Assembly: GCA_034439715.1 (NCBI GenBank)
Contig: JAWXAY010000084.1
Span: forward strand, 1-11,971
Direction: 5' to 3'
Source: Pseudomonadota bacterium
Lineage (GTDB): Bacteria; Bdellovibrionota; Bdellovibrionia; Bdellovibrionales; SG-bin7
DNA length: 11,971 nt
The notes under the pieces were generated by a model. That model was not told the origin of the DNA. It worked only from the letters and a program-made list of their open reading frames with translations, and made no database searches. Below are positions 2,388 through 11,816 of this stretch, in pieces (position 1 is the first letter of the stretch; every line of letters begins with the position of its first letter). The translations under genes and the position numbers were made by a program.

Positions 2388-4124
2388 GTGACCAGAACAG
2401 CAGTCTACTTATTTACGGTATTATGGATAAGTTCGTCAGGTGCTCAACTTAATGGGTATGACGAAATCTTTGATGAGAAGGGCGAGGTTCGTCCCCATTA
2501 CGCCGCCATTTACCAAGCTTGGGAAAGTATTCCTGAAAAGAAGCGAAACGAATTATTTGAGAACTCAAAAAAAGCATTTGAGGGAGATAACTATTTAGAA
2601 ATTCTCCCGCGTATACTCACCAGCGCCGAGTTTTATGGGGTTGTTAAACCAGGTATTGAACAGCGCGCACAAGCCATTCGCGCTTTTCTGATGGATCACT
2701 ATTCGGGAAGTAAAAATTATGCCAGAGATCACATCGTGCCTGAATCTGTAGTTACCCGGGCAATGTCAAAAACCACCGAGCTGGGACATTTCGGAAAGCT
2801 GGATCCCAGTCGTATTGCTTTCATGTATGGCCCTGACCTTATACGTGACGAAAATGGCAATTGGCGGGTCATTGAAGATAACCCCGGTTACCTTGGGGGT
2901 TTGGGTGATTTGGATTTAGCTTACAAATATCTTGCAAAATCCTATCCTGAGCTCAAAAAAATTAAACACAAAAATCCTGAAGAATTTTATAAAGGTTTAA
3001 CAGATGTCTTTAAAAATCGCGCTGATTTGCATGATGGCCGGGTTGTTATGTACATGTCGAGGCATAGCTCTGACAATGAAGATCCGCGCTTGCGCGATAT
3101 TTTCGTAAAACATGGAGTGATGTTCGTAACTCCAAAATCTCAAACTCAGCTAAAAATTTCAAAAGACGCCGTCTATGTTTTTGATACAAAAAAGGGTTTT
3201 GAGGCCAGTAAAGAAAAAGTTGGCTTTATTTTTATCAATGGTGAGCACGACGGGATTGACCCCTCTTACTTTGAGGTTCAAAAAAAACTTATTCGCGAAG
3301 AAGCTCTGAGCCAGCTAGAGGAGATGGAGGATGACCGCGAAGGCTATGAAGAGCTTATCGAAAAAATCAAAAAGGTTTTGTTCTCTCCTAATAAAAAAAC
3401 TGGAGAAATTGATTATAAAAAACTTCTACGCCTTATTGCCCAATCTGATATCGAAGCGGATTTCGAGAGTGAATTGCGCGCTTCCCGTGGCGCGCGCGGC
3501 CTCATAAAAGCAATTCTAGAGGGAAAAGTAGAAAGTAGTTATAGCCCGGGTGTGGATTTTATTGGAGATAAAGAGTTTTATATTTATGTTCCTGAACTCA
3601 TAAGGTACTACCTCCAAGAAGAAGTGATTCTTCAAAATATACCAACCCAGAGTTTTGCCGATCCAAAGACAGGCAAATTGCGCAAAAAGGAATTCGCGGA
3701 GGTTTTTCGTGATTTAAAGGGTCATGTGATTAAACCCACCGACGGCCGCGGTGGCGATGGTATTTTCATTGGACCCTATATGACGAAAGAGGATGCTAAA
3801 CGCAGCCAAAAGCTAGTGAAGTCCGATCCTGAGGGTTTTATTCACCAATCGCTAATGACAATGTCTCATTTACGAAATTTAATCGTAGATTTGCGCGGCT
3901 ACGCTTTTGTTGACGGGCTTGGCGTTTGGGTTGGTGACCATATGTTTAGTCGGGGACTGCCGATGGATAGAGATAAAAAAGGAAAACTTAAAGGTAATGG
4001 CAAAGTAAACCTAAGCGACCAAGGGCGTGAGTTGTTGGTGCTGGTTAGCGAGGGCGGTGTCAAATTTTCCTGTTCTAGCTTATTTAAGTTTAAGCCAACT
4101 AATAGAAAAATGGCTCATCCATAA
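2388..4124 (+). CDS. Circularly permuted type 2 ATP-grasp protein (DUF404/DUF407-like peptide ligase) with an N-terminal signal peptide
   Basis: Family motifs YDEIFDEKGEVRPHY, PRIL...GIEQR...AFLMDHY, DLIRDENGNWRVIEDN, DKEFYIYVPELIRYYLQEEVILQNIPT, VIKPTDGRGGDGIFIGP, VDLR, VN.S. GTG start with good SD. N-terminus MTRTAVYLFTVLWISSSGA is signal-peptide-like. Confidence 0.88.
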   Translation: MTRTAVYLFTVLWISSSGAQLNGYDEIFDEKGEVRPHYAAIYQAWESIPEKKRNELFENSKKAFEGDNYLEILPRILTSAEFYGVVKPGIEQRAQAIRAFLMDHYSGSKNYARDHIVPESVVTRAMSKTTELGHFGKLDPSRIAFMYGPDLIRDENGNWRVIEDNPGYLGGLGDLDLAYKYLAKSYPELKKIKHKNPEEFYKGLTDVFKNRADLHDGRVVMYMSRHSSDNEDPRLRDIFVKHGVMFVTPKSQTQLKISKDAVYVFDTKKGFEASKEKVGFIFINGEHDGIDPSYFEVQKKLIREEALSQLEEMEDDREGYEELIEKIKKVLFSPNKKTGEIDYKKLLRLIAQSDIEADFESELRASRGARGLIKAILEGKVESSYSPGVDFIGDKEFYIYVPELIRYYLQEEVILQNIPTQSFADPKTGKLRKKEFAEVFRDLKGHVIKPTDGRGGDGIFIGPYMTKEDAKRSQKLVKSDPEGFIHQSLMTMSHLRNLIVDLRGYAFVDGLGVWVGDHMFSRGLPMDRDKKGKLKGNGKVNLSDQGRELLVLVSEGGVKFSCSSLFKFKPTNRKMAHP

Positions 4125-4962
4125 AAGTTTTAACTAGTAAGGGCCTACCACCATTTTCGATGTTGGGCTTGGGAAAGAGATTTAAAAATTTTTGAATAGA
4201 AATTTCTAACTCAAATTTTCTGGGTTCATATTCTTTAATTATTTTTGCACCTAATTTTTGATAGTAGCGAGCGCCAACATTATCAGTCTTAATCAGAATC
4301 TTGCCCTCTGTGAGTCCTTTTGCAATTAAATGTTCAGAAATAAAAGGCATAATCTCGAGCACGGAAATGTTGTTAAGACCTCGTTTTGCCAGGCGGCCGA
4401 TTTCAAGCCGGCTGGGACCTGAACCTTTGCTATGATCATATAATGCCCAAACAGCCATCCCTTTATCATTAGATAGGCCCCAGATGGCGACAGCTTTTTC
4501 GTCTCTGAGCGCATCTTCCTGGCGCAGCTCTGCAATAAATCTACTATCAAAAACGTCTCGGGATTTGGTCACATTTGAGTAAACTGAATAAACAAACTCC
4601 AACAGGCCGCGAGCCTTTACTTTCGTGCTTTCGGCTTTCTCATGATTTTTGAGTGTTTCGGGATTAACTACGGCGTAAATTCCTCTCGGTCCGAATGCTA
4701 GGTCCATTTGGATAAAGTTGGGCTTAAAATTCCAAAGAAACTGGCCCTCCCTATATTCCAATTTCGAATCTACCCAAATGTTTCGCCCACCAACATTGAG
4801 ATAGGCATAGCGCGTGAGCTGGTAATTTCTCAGTTTGTGCAGTTTGTGCAGTTTGTCCGTGAACTGAGAGCCGCATGACTGCGCCCCTAATTTGTCACAG
4901 ATTACCGAAATTAGGGAAATAGTGACCATGTAGGTACCGAATCTAGATAATATAAACGCCAT
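4099..4962 (-). CDS. Putative secreted GNAT-superfamily acyltransferase-like protein (LuxI/FeeM-like motif)
   Basis: LEIGRLA strand motif plus downstream ILIKTDNVGARYYQKLGAK, typical of the C-terminal part of GNAT-fold proteins. Hydrophobic N-terminus ending LGA-QS. Starts 20 nt after the TetR stop on the same strand and overlaps the ATP-grasp 3' end by 26 nt. Confidence 0.6.
   Translation of the reverse strand: MAFILSRFGTYMVTISLISVICDKLGAQSCGSQFTDKLHKLHKLRNYQLTRYAYLNVGGRNIWVDSKLEYREGQFLWNFKPNFIQMDLAFGPRGIYAVVNPETLKNHEKAESTKVKARGLLEFVYSVYSNVTKSRDVFDSRFIAELRQEDALRDEKAVAIWGLSNDKGMAVWALYDHSKGSGPSRLEIGRLAKRGLNNISVLEIMPFISEHLIAKGLTEGKILIKTDNVGARYYQKLGAKIIKEYEPRKFELEISIQKFLNLFPKPNIENGGRPLLVKTFMDEPFFY
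4831..4856. repeat. In-frame 9-bp tandem repeat (CAGTTTGTG x ~2.9), encoding KLHKLHKL
   Basis: cagtttgtg cagtttgtg cagtttgt read directly. Confidence 0.85.
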
Positions 4963-4982: not shown

Positions 4983-5570
4983 TTATGCCAGCGCGTGGAG
5001 TATGGCGCGTACATTAAACTCCTTAGTATGTTTCATGATGCCCTTTTGGCCTTGTCCAACTATATAAAGGCTGGAGCCAAAAATTAGACAATGAATGCTC
5101 GTTGCGAGGCCTTTTCGTTCAAACTCTGGTAGATTTTTTATTCGGGGAATTTGCTTCAAGAGCGTATCTATACGTAGCCTTCCCCCTTCAAACACTTGGA
5201 ACAGAAATTTTTGCACCTCTTTGACTTCAATTGCGGCCTGAAAAAGCACAGTAGAAAAACTCGCCATCTTTGGATACTTAACCATCCAGTCAAATGTAGC
5301 GTCCTGAAGGGCTACAATAATGTCACGAGGCGGATGCCCCAGTAACTTTTGCAGGTAAAGATCCGTAGTGGACTTTCCCGACTGCGCCCACTCATTCATT
5401 AATTCAAAAAGCAGTACTTCAGTATTCTTATAATGGTAAAGAACCAGTGGTTTTGAAGTCTTGGTTTTACGAGCTATAAGGGCAATGGTTGTACCACGAA
5501 ATCCATATGTTAAAAAACACTCGAGAGCGGCATCCTTTATTTTTTGTCGCGTACCCTTTGACTTCGCCAT
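4983..5570 (-). CDS. TetR/AcrR family transcriptional regulator
   Basis: N-terminal HTH TRQKIKDAALECFLTYGFRGTTIALIARKTKTSKPLVLYHYKNTEVL. The ATG at 5570 has GGAGG 13 nt upstream and is preferred over the track start at 5597. Confidence 0.92.
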   Translation of the reverse strand: MAKSKGTRQKIKDAALECFLTYGFRGTTIALIARKTKTSKPLVLYHYKNTEVLLFELMNEWAQSGKSTTDLYLQKLLGHPPRDIIVALQDATFDWMVKYPKMASFSTVLFQAAIEVKEVQKFLFQVFEGGRLRIDTLLKQIPRIKNLPEFERKGLATSIHCLIFGSSLYIVGQGQKGIMKHTKEFNVRAILHALA

Positions 5571-5620
5571 AGCCGAATCTGGACCTCCAAATGACATTTT
5601 TACAATAGTTAAAGTATATT

Positions 5621-5642
5621 TGTACTATAATTAAATAGTACA
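5621..5642. promoter_or_regulatory. Palindromic operator, probably bound by the adjacent TetR
   Basis: TGTACTAT-aattaa-ATAGTACA, perfect 8-bp arms, in the divergent tetR/5701 intergenic region. It overlaps a TATAAT hexamer (5626-5631). Confidence 0.7.
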
Positions 5643-5700: not shown

Positions 5701-6255
5701 ATGAGTTTTAGGAATTTGTTTTTAGGTTTATTTTTGGTCACTACCCAAGCAGCCACGGCCCAGCACGCTCCAGGCGCTAACATTCATGAGAAAAACGTGA
5801 TTTGCAGTGTAGGGGCAGTCACCAAAGGTCATAATATAATGGGTGATTTTCATCAACAAGACACGGTTACGTTACAATTTGATTCGAGCGAAACCGTTGA
5901 GTATCCGGTTGTTGGTGGTGGCACGGAGAAAATTAGCTTTGGTTCAGGAGTAGCTCAAATAACACGAACTGTGCGCATGTGGGACAACGAAAAAAAAGAA
6001 ATTCTAAAACCATTAATAGTAAAAGTTGAAATTAGTCGCCTGGGAGCGAATCAGAAAGTGGGAAAGTTTTCCGTTATAATGTTCAATCCCTTCACAGCTC
6101 AGCTGGTAACCACCGAGCGTGATATGAGCCCTCGCCATGCCACAAATGGCTTTATATATGACCACGAAATTCTCTCTAGTCCTACAATTGATAAGGCTCA
6201 GGTGGGGGACCTTATACAAAGTTATGTTTTCTGCAATTTTGAAAGTGGTACTTAG
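5701..6255 (+). CDS. Secreted hypothetical protein (184 aa), beta-rich, two Cys near the ends
   Basis: GGAGAGG SD, signal peptide MSFRNLFLGLFLVTTQAATA-, Cys35 and Cys178 only. Divergent from tetR. Confidence 0.85.
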   Translation: MSFRNLFLGLFLVTTQAATAQHAPGANIHEKNVICSVGAVTKGHNIMGDFHQQDTVTLQFDSSETVEYPVVGGGTEKISFGSGVAQITRTVRMWDNEKKEILKPLIVKVEISRLGANQKVGKFSVIMFNPFTAQLVTTERDMSPRHATNGFIYDHEILSSPTIDKAQVGDLIQSYVFCNFESGT

Positions 6256-9422: not shown

Positions 9423-10502
9423 TCAACCAAGCTTGATAAGCCCTGCTTTGACCTGTAACGCATTTGGCGGCAGTTTTTTTCTAAGTTTAGAGAGCAGGGC
9501 GCGCAGATGCATATCGTGGCGCTCTTTATCATATTTGAGATCGTAGACATCGGTAAAAAGATCTTCGAGGGTTTTCTCACCTCTTAAAAGACAGATTAGC
9601 ACCTTACTTAAAGTTGGCGAGTTCTCAAAACGGCTGATCGATTTTGGGTTTGTAATTAATAGTACACCCAGGCCTTCAAGAAAGTTGATATTTTTTGATT
9701 TCAATTCGACTTCGCCAAGATCTTTTAAATCTCTGCGACACCTTTCTGTCATTTCCAAATCACCTAACCAGAGTGCTATGGCCAAGGTCTCGTGCAAAAG
9801 ACTGCGCAGCTCCTGCACCTTTCCCTGTCTTTTTAGATAATGACAATAACCCCTGGCTACCAACAAGTTTCGGGCGAGCCAGATTTCATCCTGCTTAATT
9901 CCGCGAAGTTTTTGTTTCAGATAATCCAGAATTTCTTTAGCTTCAGAAAATTTGTTTTGTTCTGACTTAATTTTTACTAGGTGGGCTCCGGCAACATACG
10001 AAGAAATCACAAAGGGCATGTAGTCCAAATAATTCAAAGATTTTTTTAAGTTTGAAACAGCACGGTCGGTATGCCCCAAATGATAGTAAGACTGCCCCAG
10101 AAGTTCATAGCTCGTGATCTTTGTTGTTAGTAACACGTCCCTATCCACGATAAGGTGCTGTAGGATTTCCTTTGAAATGCCGTATTCTAGTGTATAAAAG
10201 TAATATCTGGCTCTCTCTAGCGAGAGTTCAGACCGCTCTTCTATACTTTCGGTCACACACGAATCTATCATCTCTTTTGCCTTTTTATAGTCTTCGTTGG
10301 CGATATGTGTGCGAATAGCCTCTAGCTGCTCCGTAAATGACTCGTAACCAGATTTTCTTTGCACTTCACTAGCCAAATCCACACGGCCACGCACGTCGCG
10401 TAGGTAATAGGATACAAGTTCAGCTGAGCCTTGATCTGCCAAAGAAATAGCGGCATCACCGGTTTTTGCGATATTCATTTCAAATTTCATTTGTTTGTTC
10501 AT
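9423..10502 (-). CDS. TPR-like repeat protein with C-terminal winged-helix DNA-binding domain (putative transcription regulator)
   Basis: Helical repeats (LERARYYFYTLEYGISKEIL; ELLGQSYYHLGHTDRAVSNLKKSL; QNKFSEAKEIL). The C-terminus KVLICLL...TLEDLFTDVYD...HLRALLSKLRKKLPP..LQVKAG resembles OmpR/PhoB-type wHTH. No receiver domain evident. Confidence 0.78.
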   Translation of the reverse strand: MNKQMKFEMNIAKTGDAAISLADQGSAELVSYYLRDVRGRVDLASEVQRKSGYESFTEQLEAIRTHIANEDYKKAKEMIDSCVTESIEERSELSLERARYYFYTLEYGISKEILQHLIVDRDVLLTTKITSYELLGQSYYHLGHTDRAVSNLKKSLNYLDYMPFVISSYVAGAHLVKIKSEQNKFSEAKEILDYLKQKLRGIKQDEIWLARNLLVARGYCHYLKRQGKVQELRSLLHETLAIALWLGDLEMTERCRRDLKDLGEVELKSKNINFLEGLGVLLITNPKSISRFENSPTLSKVLICLLRGEKTLEDLFTDVYDLKYDKERHDMHLRALLSKLRKKLPPNALQVKAGLIKLG

Positions 10503-10505
10503 ATT

Positions 10506-11750
10506 CTACTCTGGATAGACCAAAAGTTGGGGTTGAATGTATGGTCCGATTTTTAGTCCAGGTCCGCCGCCGCCTTTTGTTCCACCGTGAAATAGACTCG
10601 TATTTTCGTTTTGTATAAAAATATTTGTGATAGCCGCGCGATCTTTAAAAAACGATGACTCACCATATGTACTGCAATCAAGGTCTTCTTTTGGAAGTGT
10701 CAGCCAATTGATAAAGGGTGATCCATTCTGCACGACTTCAAAGGTGTGTCTGCAACCTTTTAGAAATCTCGATGTTCTTTCTCCAAAAGTACTATAAAAC
10801 TTATTATGAAGGTCGCGATAAATCTTTTGATCGCCATTATCATCCTGATAGAGAAAATCAAGGTCACCAAAATAACCTATTTCAATTGCGCGAGCAAACT
10901 TTTGGAGAAATCTTAAATCCACCTGAATTGCGGGGTTAAAATTATGGTACTTTTTTAGTATGGGAAGTTCATGAAATTCTGTATCTCGCTGCCTAAGTGT
11001 TTTATCCTGAGACCAATCGTCGATTTTGGGCAGGAGGTATTCGAAAGCATGCCTCAAGTTCATAAAAAGAGTCATCGTAGTCATATGAAAGACTATTTTT
11101 AGGCCCTGTTCGGTCACCTTGCCCGCTTTGTTTTGTTTAACATCCAACCATTCGGCATTTTGCTCCAGCCGCAAAATATACCAATTAGCTTGGGCTTCAT
11201 AAAAAAAACGTAGGTAATCTACTAATTGATCTTGTCTAATTTTAATGCCGTCGGGAGAGCCCTCTTGAGCATACCTGTAGAGAATTTCGATATCTAAGGG
11301 AAACCGATAAATATATTGGACCGCATGAATTAATTCATGGAAAAACCAAATGGCATTTTCTTTATTTACCGATTCAACATCGACTAATAGGTAATGGGAC
11401 AGAGGTAAATATACAGCAACTAGCTCACTACAGCGATTTCCAGTTGTACAGTGCATGCGTGGAATAGCGAGCTTTTCTCGTAAATCAGGAGTCAGTTTTC
11501 GCACTCTTTTTTCGGCCAATAGCCTTTGCCAGGTAGCAACCAGGAGTAACCGAAGCCCACGTTCTTGCTTATTAAGAAATACATTGTGTTCAATAAAATA
11601 AAGCTCTTCTTCAGTGAAATTTGGGAGTTCGGACGAGAGTAGGACTTCGACTTCAAATTTACCTCTGTCCAGCATGCCACCTAGGTCACTGTCTGCACGA
11701 GCGAGCGAACCAAAGAGGCCTAAAATAAGAAGTGTGGAAATGGCTTTCAT
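10506..11750 (-). CDS. Secreted putative zinc metallopeptidase (HEXXH...E, gluzincin-like)
   Basis: ATG at 11750 gives signal peptide MKAISTLLILGLFGSLARA- (track start is TTG at 11771). FFHELIHAVQY at 11325-11339, preceded by AVY...LLVD strands, and YEAQAN 43 aa after the second His. The stop lies 3 nt before the TPR-wHTH start. Confidence 0.7.
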   Translation of the reverse strand: MKAISTLLILGLFGSLARADSDLGGMLDRGKFEVEVLLSSELPNFTEEELYFIEHNVFLNKQERGLRLLLVATWQRLLAEKRVRKLTPDLREKLAIPRMHCTTGNRCSELVAVYLPLSHYLLVDVESVNKENAIWFFHELIHAVQYIYRFPLDIEILYRYAQEGSPDGIKIRQDQLVDYLRFFYEAQANWYILRLEQNAEWLDVKQNKAGKVTEQGLKIVFHMTTMTLFMNLRHAFEYLLPKIDDWSQDKTLRQRDTEFHELPILKKYHNFNPAIQVDLRFLQKFARAIEIGYFGDLDFLYQDDNGDQKIYRDLHNKFYSTFGERTSRFLKGCRHTFEVVQNGSPFINWLTLPKEDLDCSTYGESSFFKDRAAITNIFIQNENTSLFHGGTKGGGGPGLKIGPYIQPQLLVYPE

Positions 11751-11816
11751 ACTATCTAGCTTAAATAGCAATTTCTCTACCCACTCTTCTCAGCCACAGC
11801 TCAACTAATGGCCCTA

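Follow-up and report, generated by a model that had tools for sequence, protein, structure and literature searches.

The stretch of DNA considered here (the window, 11,971 nucleotides in full) is contig C84 (JAWXAY010000084.1) of the 3.26-Mb genome GCA_034439715.1 (completeness 95.7%), which belongs to the Bdellovibrionales (SG-bin7). It contains two convergent genes, called gene A and gene B in the following, which overlap by 26 nt and encode enzymes with predicted signal peptides. Both proteins carry, close to one end, a short motif around a single Cys residue, which is referred to as the tag. DNA of the window is contained in microbial-mat metagenome runs, and no RNA dataset is among those listed as containing it. 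The 3,156 open reading frames (ORFs) and the signal peptides of this genome were called with custom rules, the signal rule being based on hydrophobicity.

Gene A and gene B encode tagged enzymes

Gene A (2388..4124, plus strand) encodes a protein of 578 aa with a predicted signal peptide at residues 1-19 (2388..2444, plus strand). It matches Pfam PF14403 (CP_ATPgrasp_2) with an E value of 3.5e-38, and its structure model, with a predicted local distance difference test (pLDDT) value of 90, resembles 3n6x (E 2.7e-25) and glutathione synthetases. All 40 rows of the alignment share the residues D150, E163-D-N165, D394-K395, K449, D501, and R503. With a PF14403 match above the cut-off, the corresponding fold, the E-x-N motif, and the ATP-binding residues, A is a circularly permuted (CP) type 2 ATP-grasp ligase. 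Its C-terminal tag, C-S-S-L-F (4071..4085, plus strand; SCSSLF spans 4068-4085), contains Cys562, the sole Cys of the protein, and forms a separate short helix in the model (residues 562-566) past the catalytic domain. A search of the ESM Atlas with the tail of A returned nothing scoring 0.9 or above.

Gene B (4099..4962, minus strand) encodes a protein of 287 aa for which a Pfam scan gave no match. The predicted structure (pLDDT 85) has a GNAT fold, with Z scores of 11.3 to 1xeb, 11.1 to FeeM (2g0b), and 9.8 to LasI and RpaI; the FeeM score ties with those of generic GNATs (Z within 1). Two B homologs match the Pfam FeeM model at E 2e-4 and 4e-4, below the cut-off. Conservation within the family (24 rows) is highest at E187, which is invariant, and at R190, which is present in at least 90% (E187-x-x-R190; 4393..4404, minus strand); we take this motif to resemble the β4 motif of LuxI and FeeM. 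The modelled GNAT fold with a conserved E-x-x-R corresponds to the structural mark of FeeM/LuxI acyltransferases. The predicted signal peptide of B comprises residues 1-27 (4882..4962, minus strand) and includes Cys22. It is less canonical than those of the homologs, with Asp and Lys close to the cleavage site, and the database call of the protein begins at Met12. The N-terminal tag, C-G-S-Q-F (4861..4875, minus strand; SCGSQF spans 4861-4878), starts with Cys30 two residues past the predicted cleavage site.

A preliminary description of the window had reported that the two genes converge and overlap, together with their Cys counts and the coordinates of the motifs, and all of this was confirmed on the sequence. 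This includes the single mature Cys of each protein (Cys562 in A, and Cys30 in B, where Cys22 lies inside the predicted signal peptide) and the even numbers of mature Cys residues in the five small secreted proteins of the window (2, 8, 4, 2, and 2). The proposed enzyme types also held, by Pfam for A and by the structure model for B.

Conservation of the tag in the A and B families

A total of 71 homologs of A were found, of which 68 were counted after three distant partial matches had been left out. By the hydrophobicity rule, a signal peptide is predicted for 58 of these 68 proteins, a Cys is found within the last 25 residues in 66, and exactly one Cys is present past residue 40 in 65. Position +3 from the Cys is hydrophobic and position +4 is Phe, Leu, or Tyr in 57 homologs (37, 12, and 8, respectively). 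Signal peptide and terminal Cys occur together in 40 of 45 complete A ORFs from named genomes. The signal peptides are also backed by an N-terminal extension: the number of residues ahead of the position of Tyr24 in A has a median of 28 in tagged members, compared with 0-18 in untagged relatives. The three distant relatives have neither signal peptide nor tag, and both are also missing from a member from the Myxococcota that is nested within the tagged A clade, which is one suggestive event.

The nearest named relative of A is SG_bin7 (68%), and 49 of 56 loci related to A bear Bdellovibrionota-type names. CP type 2 ATP-grasp proteins are described as part of a peptide-ligase system with alpha-E, transglutaminase, and Anbu proteins, in which alpha-E is the usual partner (Iyer 2009, cited in PMC5666114, accessible part). 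An alpha-E match was not found in the 95.7% complete genome studied here, and the same search matched in three control genomes with PF14403. Among the 56 A loci, alpha-E is not a recurrent neighbor, and neither is any other gene, including a carrier or B subunit. A is a stand-alone gene for which an alpha-E partner was not found. Separately, PF14403 weakly matches open frames of 1,100-1,300 aa in five genomes (G008, G025, G034, G042, and G049) of families f13, f14, and f18; these weak matches may indicate a longer ATP-grasp form within the phylum.

Members of the B family are encoded by 36 of the 301 genomes from the order, and the family profile matched nothing in 61 genomes of the Myxococcota phylum. 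Tagged members are also found in named records of cultured Bdellovibrio. Among 51 distinct members, 39 carry the tag behind the signal peptide and 6 carry it at the C-terminus; no member has it at both ends. Three of the remaining six have an N-terminal tag that is visible by eye and was missed by the rule, and three appear to begin past the tag. Conservation of the motif in orthologs and flexibility of its position, both proposed in the preliminary description, are thus borne out (66 of 68 A homologs; 45 of 51 B-family members). According to the tree of the B family, the tag must have moved to the C-terminus once or twice, so the mutual exclusivity of the N- and C-terminal forms rests on few events. 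The B family nevertheless shows the tag to be portable, with one copy needed per protein.

A look-alike of B in the ESM Atlas, YjfZ (DUF2686) of E. coli (score 0.93), is kept as a lead only. In E. coli K-12 (L257:36628-38095), yjfZ and the TetR pseudogene ytfA lie side by side in divergent orientation, but searches for sequence homology to B or to the TetR regulator next to B (see below) found none.

The tag in the genome and in relatives

The enrichment of the motif across the proteome that had been predicted was found. With a strict tag rule, which was tuned on this genome itself, 35 of 901 signal-peptide proteins are tagged, compared with a mean of 4.0 and a maximum of 12 in 200 shuffles. 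Phe occupies position +4 in 21 of 65 signal-peptide proteins with their last Cys at residues 20-40 (background 4.4%, p 3e-13). This offset-specific peak is absent from proteins without a signal peptide (2 of 19). A later Cys is lacking after 21 of 36 Cys residues in a CxxxF context, compared with 44 of 314 other Cys residues (p 1.5e-8). At the C-terminus the enrichment is weaker (11 of 41 versus 3 of 32; p 0.04 in the lone-Cys test). Tagged genes also cluster, with 16 of 35 lying within 4 kb of each other; the random mean is 2.8, and none of 2,000 random sets equaled this value.

The consensus S-C-x-S-x-F had been put forward for A and B. Its CxxxF core occurs above chance, but only 7 of the 33 tags in this genome have Ser at +2, and the consensus was rejected, the agreement between A and B being partly coincidental. 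Ser or Thr precedes the Cys in 22 of 33. The refined motif is [S/T]-C-x-x-[L/V/I/Q]-F, at either protein end. Its last residue is Phe in 18 and Leu in 2 tags of this genome. Leu is found at +4 in two others, G029 and G488 (L133, L135, L139, L248, and L251), and Leu and Phe at this position could possibly be lineage dialects. No Pfam or NCBIfam model covers the tag in scans with both collections. Judged from sequence, the tag is real, modular, and terminal, and its Cys is usually the only one of the mature protein.

In other genomes, individual tagged proteins include IucA/IucC, deamidase, NIF phosphatase, RamC kinase-like, PI3/4-kinase-like, amidoligase, and ABC1 kinase proteins. Among signal-peptide proteins of outgroups (Myxococcota phylum and E. 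coli), 0 of 46 are tagged (p 0.41), a sample that is too small for a statement on lineage specificity. When a DNA pattern representing the C-terminal tag was run on 13 genomes, it gave no more matches than its reversed control in most of them, and one of eight matches examined is a real tagged gene.

Bdellovibrio bacteriovorus HD100 encodes at least two tagged proteins, Q6MP29 and CAE80164. Q6MP29 (P0101) ends with CGPVFN and belongs to a family without Pfam match in which 90 of 90 members are tagged and which is near-core in genus g9 (36 of 44 genomes). The family has an invariant Cys (C389) and a conserved Gly-rich strand region, and a tagged homolog is encoded in the genome studied here (L020:2676-3722; C100:54676-55722). 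Its members may represent delivery apparatus rather than cargo. CAE80164 is an ABC1 kinase with a predicted signal peptide, and its sole Cys lies inside the terminal CEMVFN. Relatives of this kinase, counted irrespective of their tails, occur in 16 of 17 genomes of the genus. Neither protein was found in the accessible part of the predation proteome tables covering 2,195 proteins (PMC12546842), in which the kinase was sought by name and neighbors only.

Gene B travels with a TetR module

In the preliminary description, A and B had been regarded as a pair forming one system. This did not stand, because their synteny is not conserved: a B-family gene is present in none of 56 A loci, and among B loci A was seen only in those of this genome. 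A partnership or a disulfide bond between A and B was rejected on these grounds. Instead, B travels with a TetR regulator and a divergent secreted gene, which the preliminary description had missed. The TetR gene (4983..5597, minus strand; PF00440) lies on the same strand as B, 20 nt upstream of it, and its product is the best match in this genome for a clade profile built without it. Of 30 loci, 16 have a TetR gene adjoining the B-family gene, namely L163 and 15 of the 29 new loci, this genome's own among them. In those 15 loci, the two genes are arranged tail-to-tail in 11, co-directionally in 4, and divergently in none.

Divergent from the TetR gene, a small secreted protein with two Cys residues and no Pfam match is encoded (5701..6255, plus strand), which is the probable regulated output of TetR, judging from the arrangement of the genes. 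The gene upstream of TetR is visible in 12 loci, and in 11 of these it is divergent and encodes a small signal-peptide protein with an even number of Cys residues. Between the two genes of the window lies a putative operator-like inverted repeat with 8-nt arms and a 6-nt gap (5621..5642); it overlaps a -10-like site, promoter matches overall being at chance level. The three TetR proteins of this clade in the genome are encoded beside B, near a tagged B paralog, and beside a signal-peptide aldo-keto reductase. At the third site (L237:2564-4530; C80), the aldo-keto reductase carries the two-Cys variant C-x5-C-K-K-F and is accompanied by divergent small secreted genes. Intergenic palindromes are present at these sites, including a perfect 19-nt pair near the B paralog.

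Among the other genes of the window, a MEDS-PAS-histidine kinase (241-2097) is divergent from gene A and, as far as checked, not kept beside A elsewhere. Positions 9423-11771 hold two genes on one strand, the first for a TPR protein (9423-10502) and the second for a signal-peptide protein of 421 aa with four Cys residues and an H-E-x-x-H stretch, for which a Pfam scan gave no match.

A candidate label for delivery into prey

ATP, NAD, and acyl donors exist only inside cells. Several tagged proteins with predicted export nevertheless need such substrates, and the tag is therefore a probable delivery label into prey. In this genome, cargo of this kind includes the ATP-grasp protein, a DUF2252/APH kinase, a weakly supported UbiB-like kinase, an ADP-ribosyltransferase, and a GlgB-like (glycogen-branching-like) protein; in other genomes, the tagged IucA/IucC, PI3/4-kinase-like, amidoligase, and ABC1 kinase proteins belong here as well. 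For the ADP-ribosyltransferase-like ORF (L003:7312-7929; C25:12309-12929), the hydrophobic signal-like stretch runs on upstream in frame, and no ATG, GTG, or TTG start precedes it. In the reading we prefer, to which we give an even chance, the tag labels Sec-exported cargo for delivery to the prey cytoplasm, probably by serving as a reducible disulfide tether. We infer export, prey delivery, and a reader of the tag.

The helix C-x-x-hydrophobic-F would then be a portable cargo label of the Bdellovibrionota, used once per protein at either free end. Cargo would be carried over the inner membrane by Sec and fold in the oxidizing periplasm, where a partner would bind the Phe-bearing helix and trap the lone Cys as a mixed disulfide. 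Such a capture would account for the purge of other Cys residues. The loaded partner would exit via type II secretion, a Tad or type IV pilus, or vesicles and reach the prey cytoplasm, where reduction would release the enzyme in the presence of ATP, NAD, or acyl donors. There, A would serve as a peptide ligase for prey substrates, and B would form amides by acyl transfer. The genome encodes three DsbA-type genes, DsbB, four secretins, and clusters for type II secretion, type IVa pili, and Tad pili, which were assigned by reading the genes around secretin matches.

The linked TetR plausibly reads the product of B and controls the divergent secreted gene. In a corresponding reporter circuit, B would produce an acyl-amide only inside the prey cytoplasm, and sensing of this compound by the TetR of the predator would lead to the production of more secreted proteins. 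That the Bdellovibrionota possess a new prey-delivery route combining the lone-Cys helix with such a FeeM-like/TetR circuit, with the Q6MP29 family perhaps as apparatus, is a tentative proposition.

Several observations weigh against delivery into the prey cytoplasm. Much of the cargo would be fit for extracellular work, namely two glycoside hydrolases (trehalases), two FAD oxidases, S41 and S8 proteases, and a nucleoside hydrolase, and 17 of the 33 tagged proteins scanned have no Pfam match. One S41 protease, C75:8445, carries an apparent tag, in which Cys34 is accompanied by Cys108, and probably corresponds to Bd0967. The accessible part of a report on Bd0967 describes an intramolecular C33-C100 disulfide and localization inside the predator (10.64898/2026.06.08.730854), which makes C75:8445 a likely false positive. 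The tag is not found on every likely prey-acting enzyme, as a secreted PHB-depolymerase-family protein of genus g9 is untagged. Random samples of ten other Bdellovibrionota genomes gave 5 of 498 tagged proteins with the strict rule, which is near the shuffle rate, and 13 of 498 when Phe or Leu was accepted, so this genome is unusually tag-rich and genome-wide enrichment is demonstrated here only. In addition, the A homolog L074 has a signal peptide and no tag, and L079 has the terminal Cys and no signal peptide. The link between TetR and B is one-sided, only 5 of 30 TetR-clade loci having a B-family neighbor within 1.5 kb. Finally, no carrier, reader, or translocon was identified, and lone-Cys candidates gave no clear carrier.

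Tethering, lipidation, and other explanations

Extracellular-type hydrolases, the lone Cys, and the flexible position would be accounted for equally if the tag served for tethering without translocation. Through the tag, enzymes would be cross-linked with each other, with a scaffold at the surface, or with vesicles, and they would act on leaked prey cytosol in the bdelloplast or contact zone. Uniform 25-nm vesicles are present in bdelloplasts according to the accessible part of a report (10.1101/2022.06.13.496000). Some A homologs (L050, L062, and L065; P0057 and P0062), mostly labeled Bacteriovoracaceae or Bdellovibrio, combine the C-terminal tag with a signal of the lipoprotein type, behind which an R-x-x-A stretch is found. 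However, the tagged genes are mostly unrelated singletons without a conserved partner, and pairwise locking between neighbors therefore fails in the case of A. Targets in an intact cytoplasm would also be better suited to the kinases, the ADP-ribosyltransferase, and the glycogen enzyme. We regard tethering as the main rival of the preferred reading, though as rather doubtful.

S-acylation or another modification of the Cys might anchor the proteins in a membrane or vesicle. In favor of this, the setting of the tag, a short amphipathic helix at a protein end with only one Cys, resembles S-acylation sites. Canonical lipidation, which had been among the roles suggested for the motif, is excluded by the absence of a lipobox ([LVI][ASTVI][GAS]C) from all N-terminal tags (0 of 23) and by the location of the Cys, which is not the mature +1 residue and, in 22 of 23, follows an A-x-A-like site at a distance of 1-7 residues. 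The C-terminal form is beyond processing by Lgt and LspA, and a CaaX box was rejected, since 4 to 20 residues follow the Cys among 66 A homologs. Lipidation is an unlikely explanation.

Somewhat less credit still is given to periplasmic housekeeping, in which the proteins would remain in the predator periplasm, their folds being reused or otherwise supplied with nucleotides or acyl groups, and the Cys would function in folding or redox reactions. It is favored by Bd0967, which has an N-terminal Cys33 and localizes inside the predator (10.64898/2026.06.08.730854, accessible part), and by the near-core distribution of the Q6MP29 family, which is unlike that of fast-turnover effectors. On the other hand, the catalytic residues of the ATP-grasp are invariant, most tagged proteins have no second Cys for pairing, and A and B are patchily distributed. 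An artefact of chance or start-codon calling, conceivable with ORFs and signals called by custom rules, is highly improbable, because the Cys is invariant across three unrelated families and the offset-specific Phe peak is absent without a signal peptide; it is already contradicted by these results together with the A homologs and the shuffle census.

Under the preferred reading, that of a label for delivery into prey, the five-residue tag would allow candidate effectors to be listed from sequence alone. A single-codon test is possible in a genetically tractable strain with Q6MP29 and CAE80164, and the TetR module is a concrete candidate for the perception of prey-derived cues.

Comparison with known systems

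To our knowledge, no bacterial sorting signal works at both termini. A description of the tag was not found in the accessible part of the open-access literature, and the tag is apparently undescribed. In the typhoid toxin (CdtB-PltA) and in AB5 toxins (A1-A2), a Sec-exported enzyme is joined through a terminal Cys to a delivery part by one reducible disulfide and is released where conditions are reducing. The single terminal Cys on an enzyme with predicted Sec export (65 of 68 A homologs, with a heuristic signal call) resembles this arrangement. In contrast to these fixed pairs within one toxin, about 30 proteins that are unrelated to each other carry the tag at one end or the other, and no B subunit or carrier was found. 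With the lipoprotein signal processed by Lgt, LspA, and Lnt, the tag shares a conserved Cys shortly behind the signal peptide, but it has no lipobox, follows a signal peptidase I-like site, has Phe at +4, and also exists in a C-terminal form.

Many luxI/luxR pairs lie tail-to-tail. B resembles the FeeM and LuxI/LuxR systems in its modelled GNAT fold near FeeM, LasI, and RpaI and in the tail-to-tail arrangement with a regulator gene in 11 of 15 loci. It differs in its predicted export and in the regulator, which is a TetR and not a LuxR protein, and generic GNATs score equally. A shares fold and catalytic residues with the CP ATP-grasp/alpha-E system and differs from it by the signal peptide, the tag, and the fact that no alpha-E was found. 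RxLR, CHxC, Y/F/WxC, and PEXEL are post-signal effector motifs of eukaryotic parasites and are N-terminal only. Like the tag, they are short motifs behind a signal peptide that are shared by unrelated effectors, whereas the tag is found in bacteria and can change from one end to the other among members of a family.

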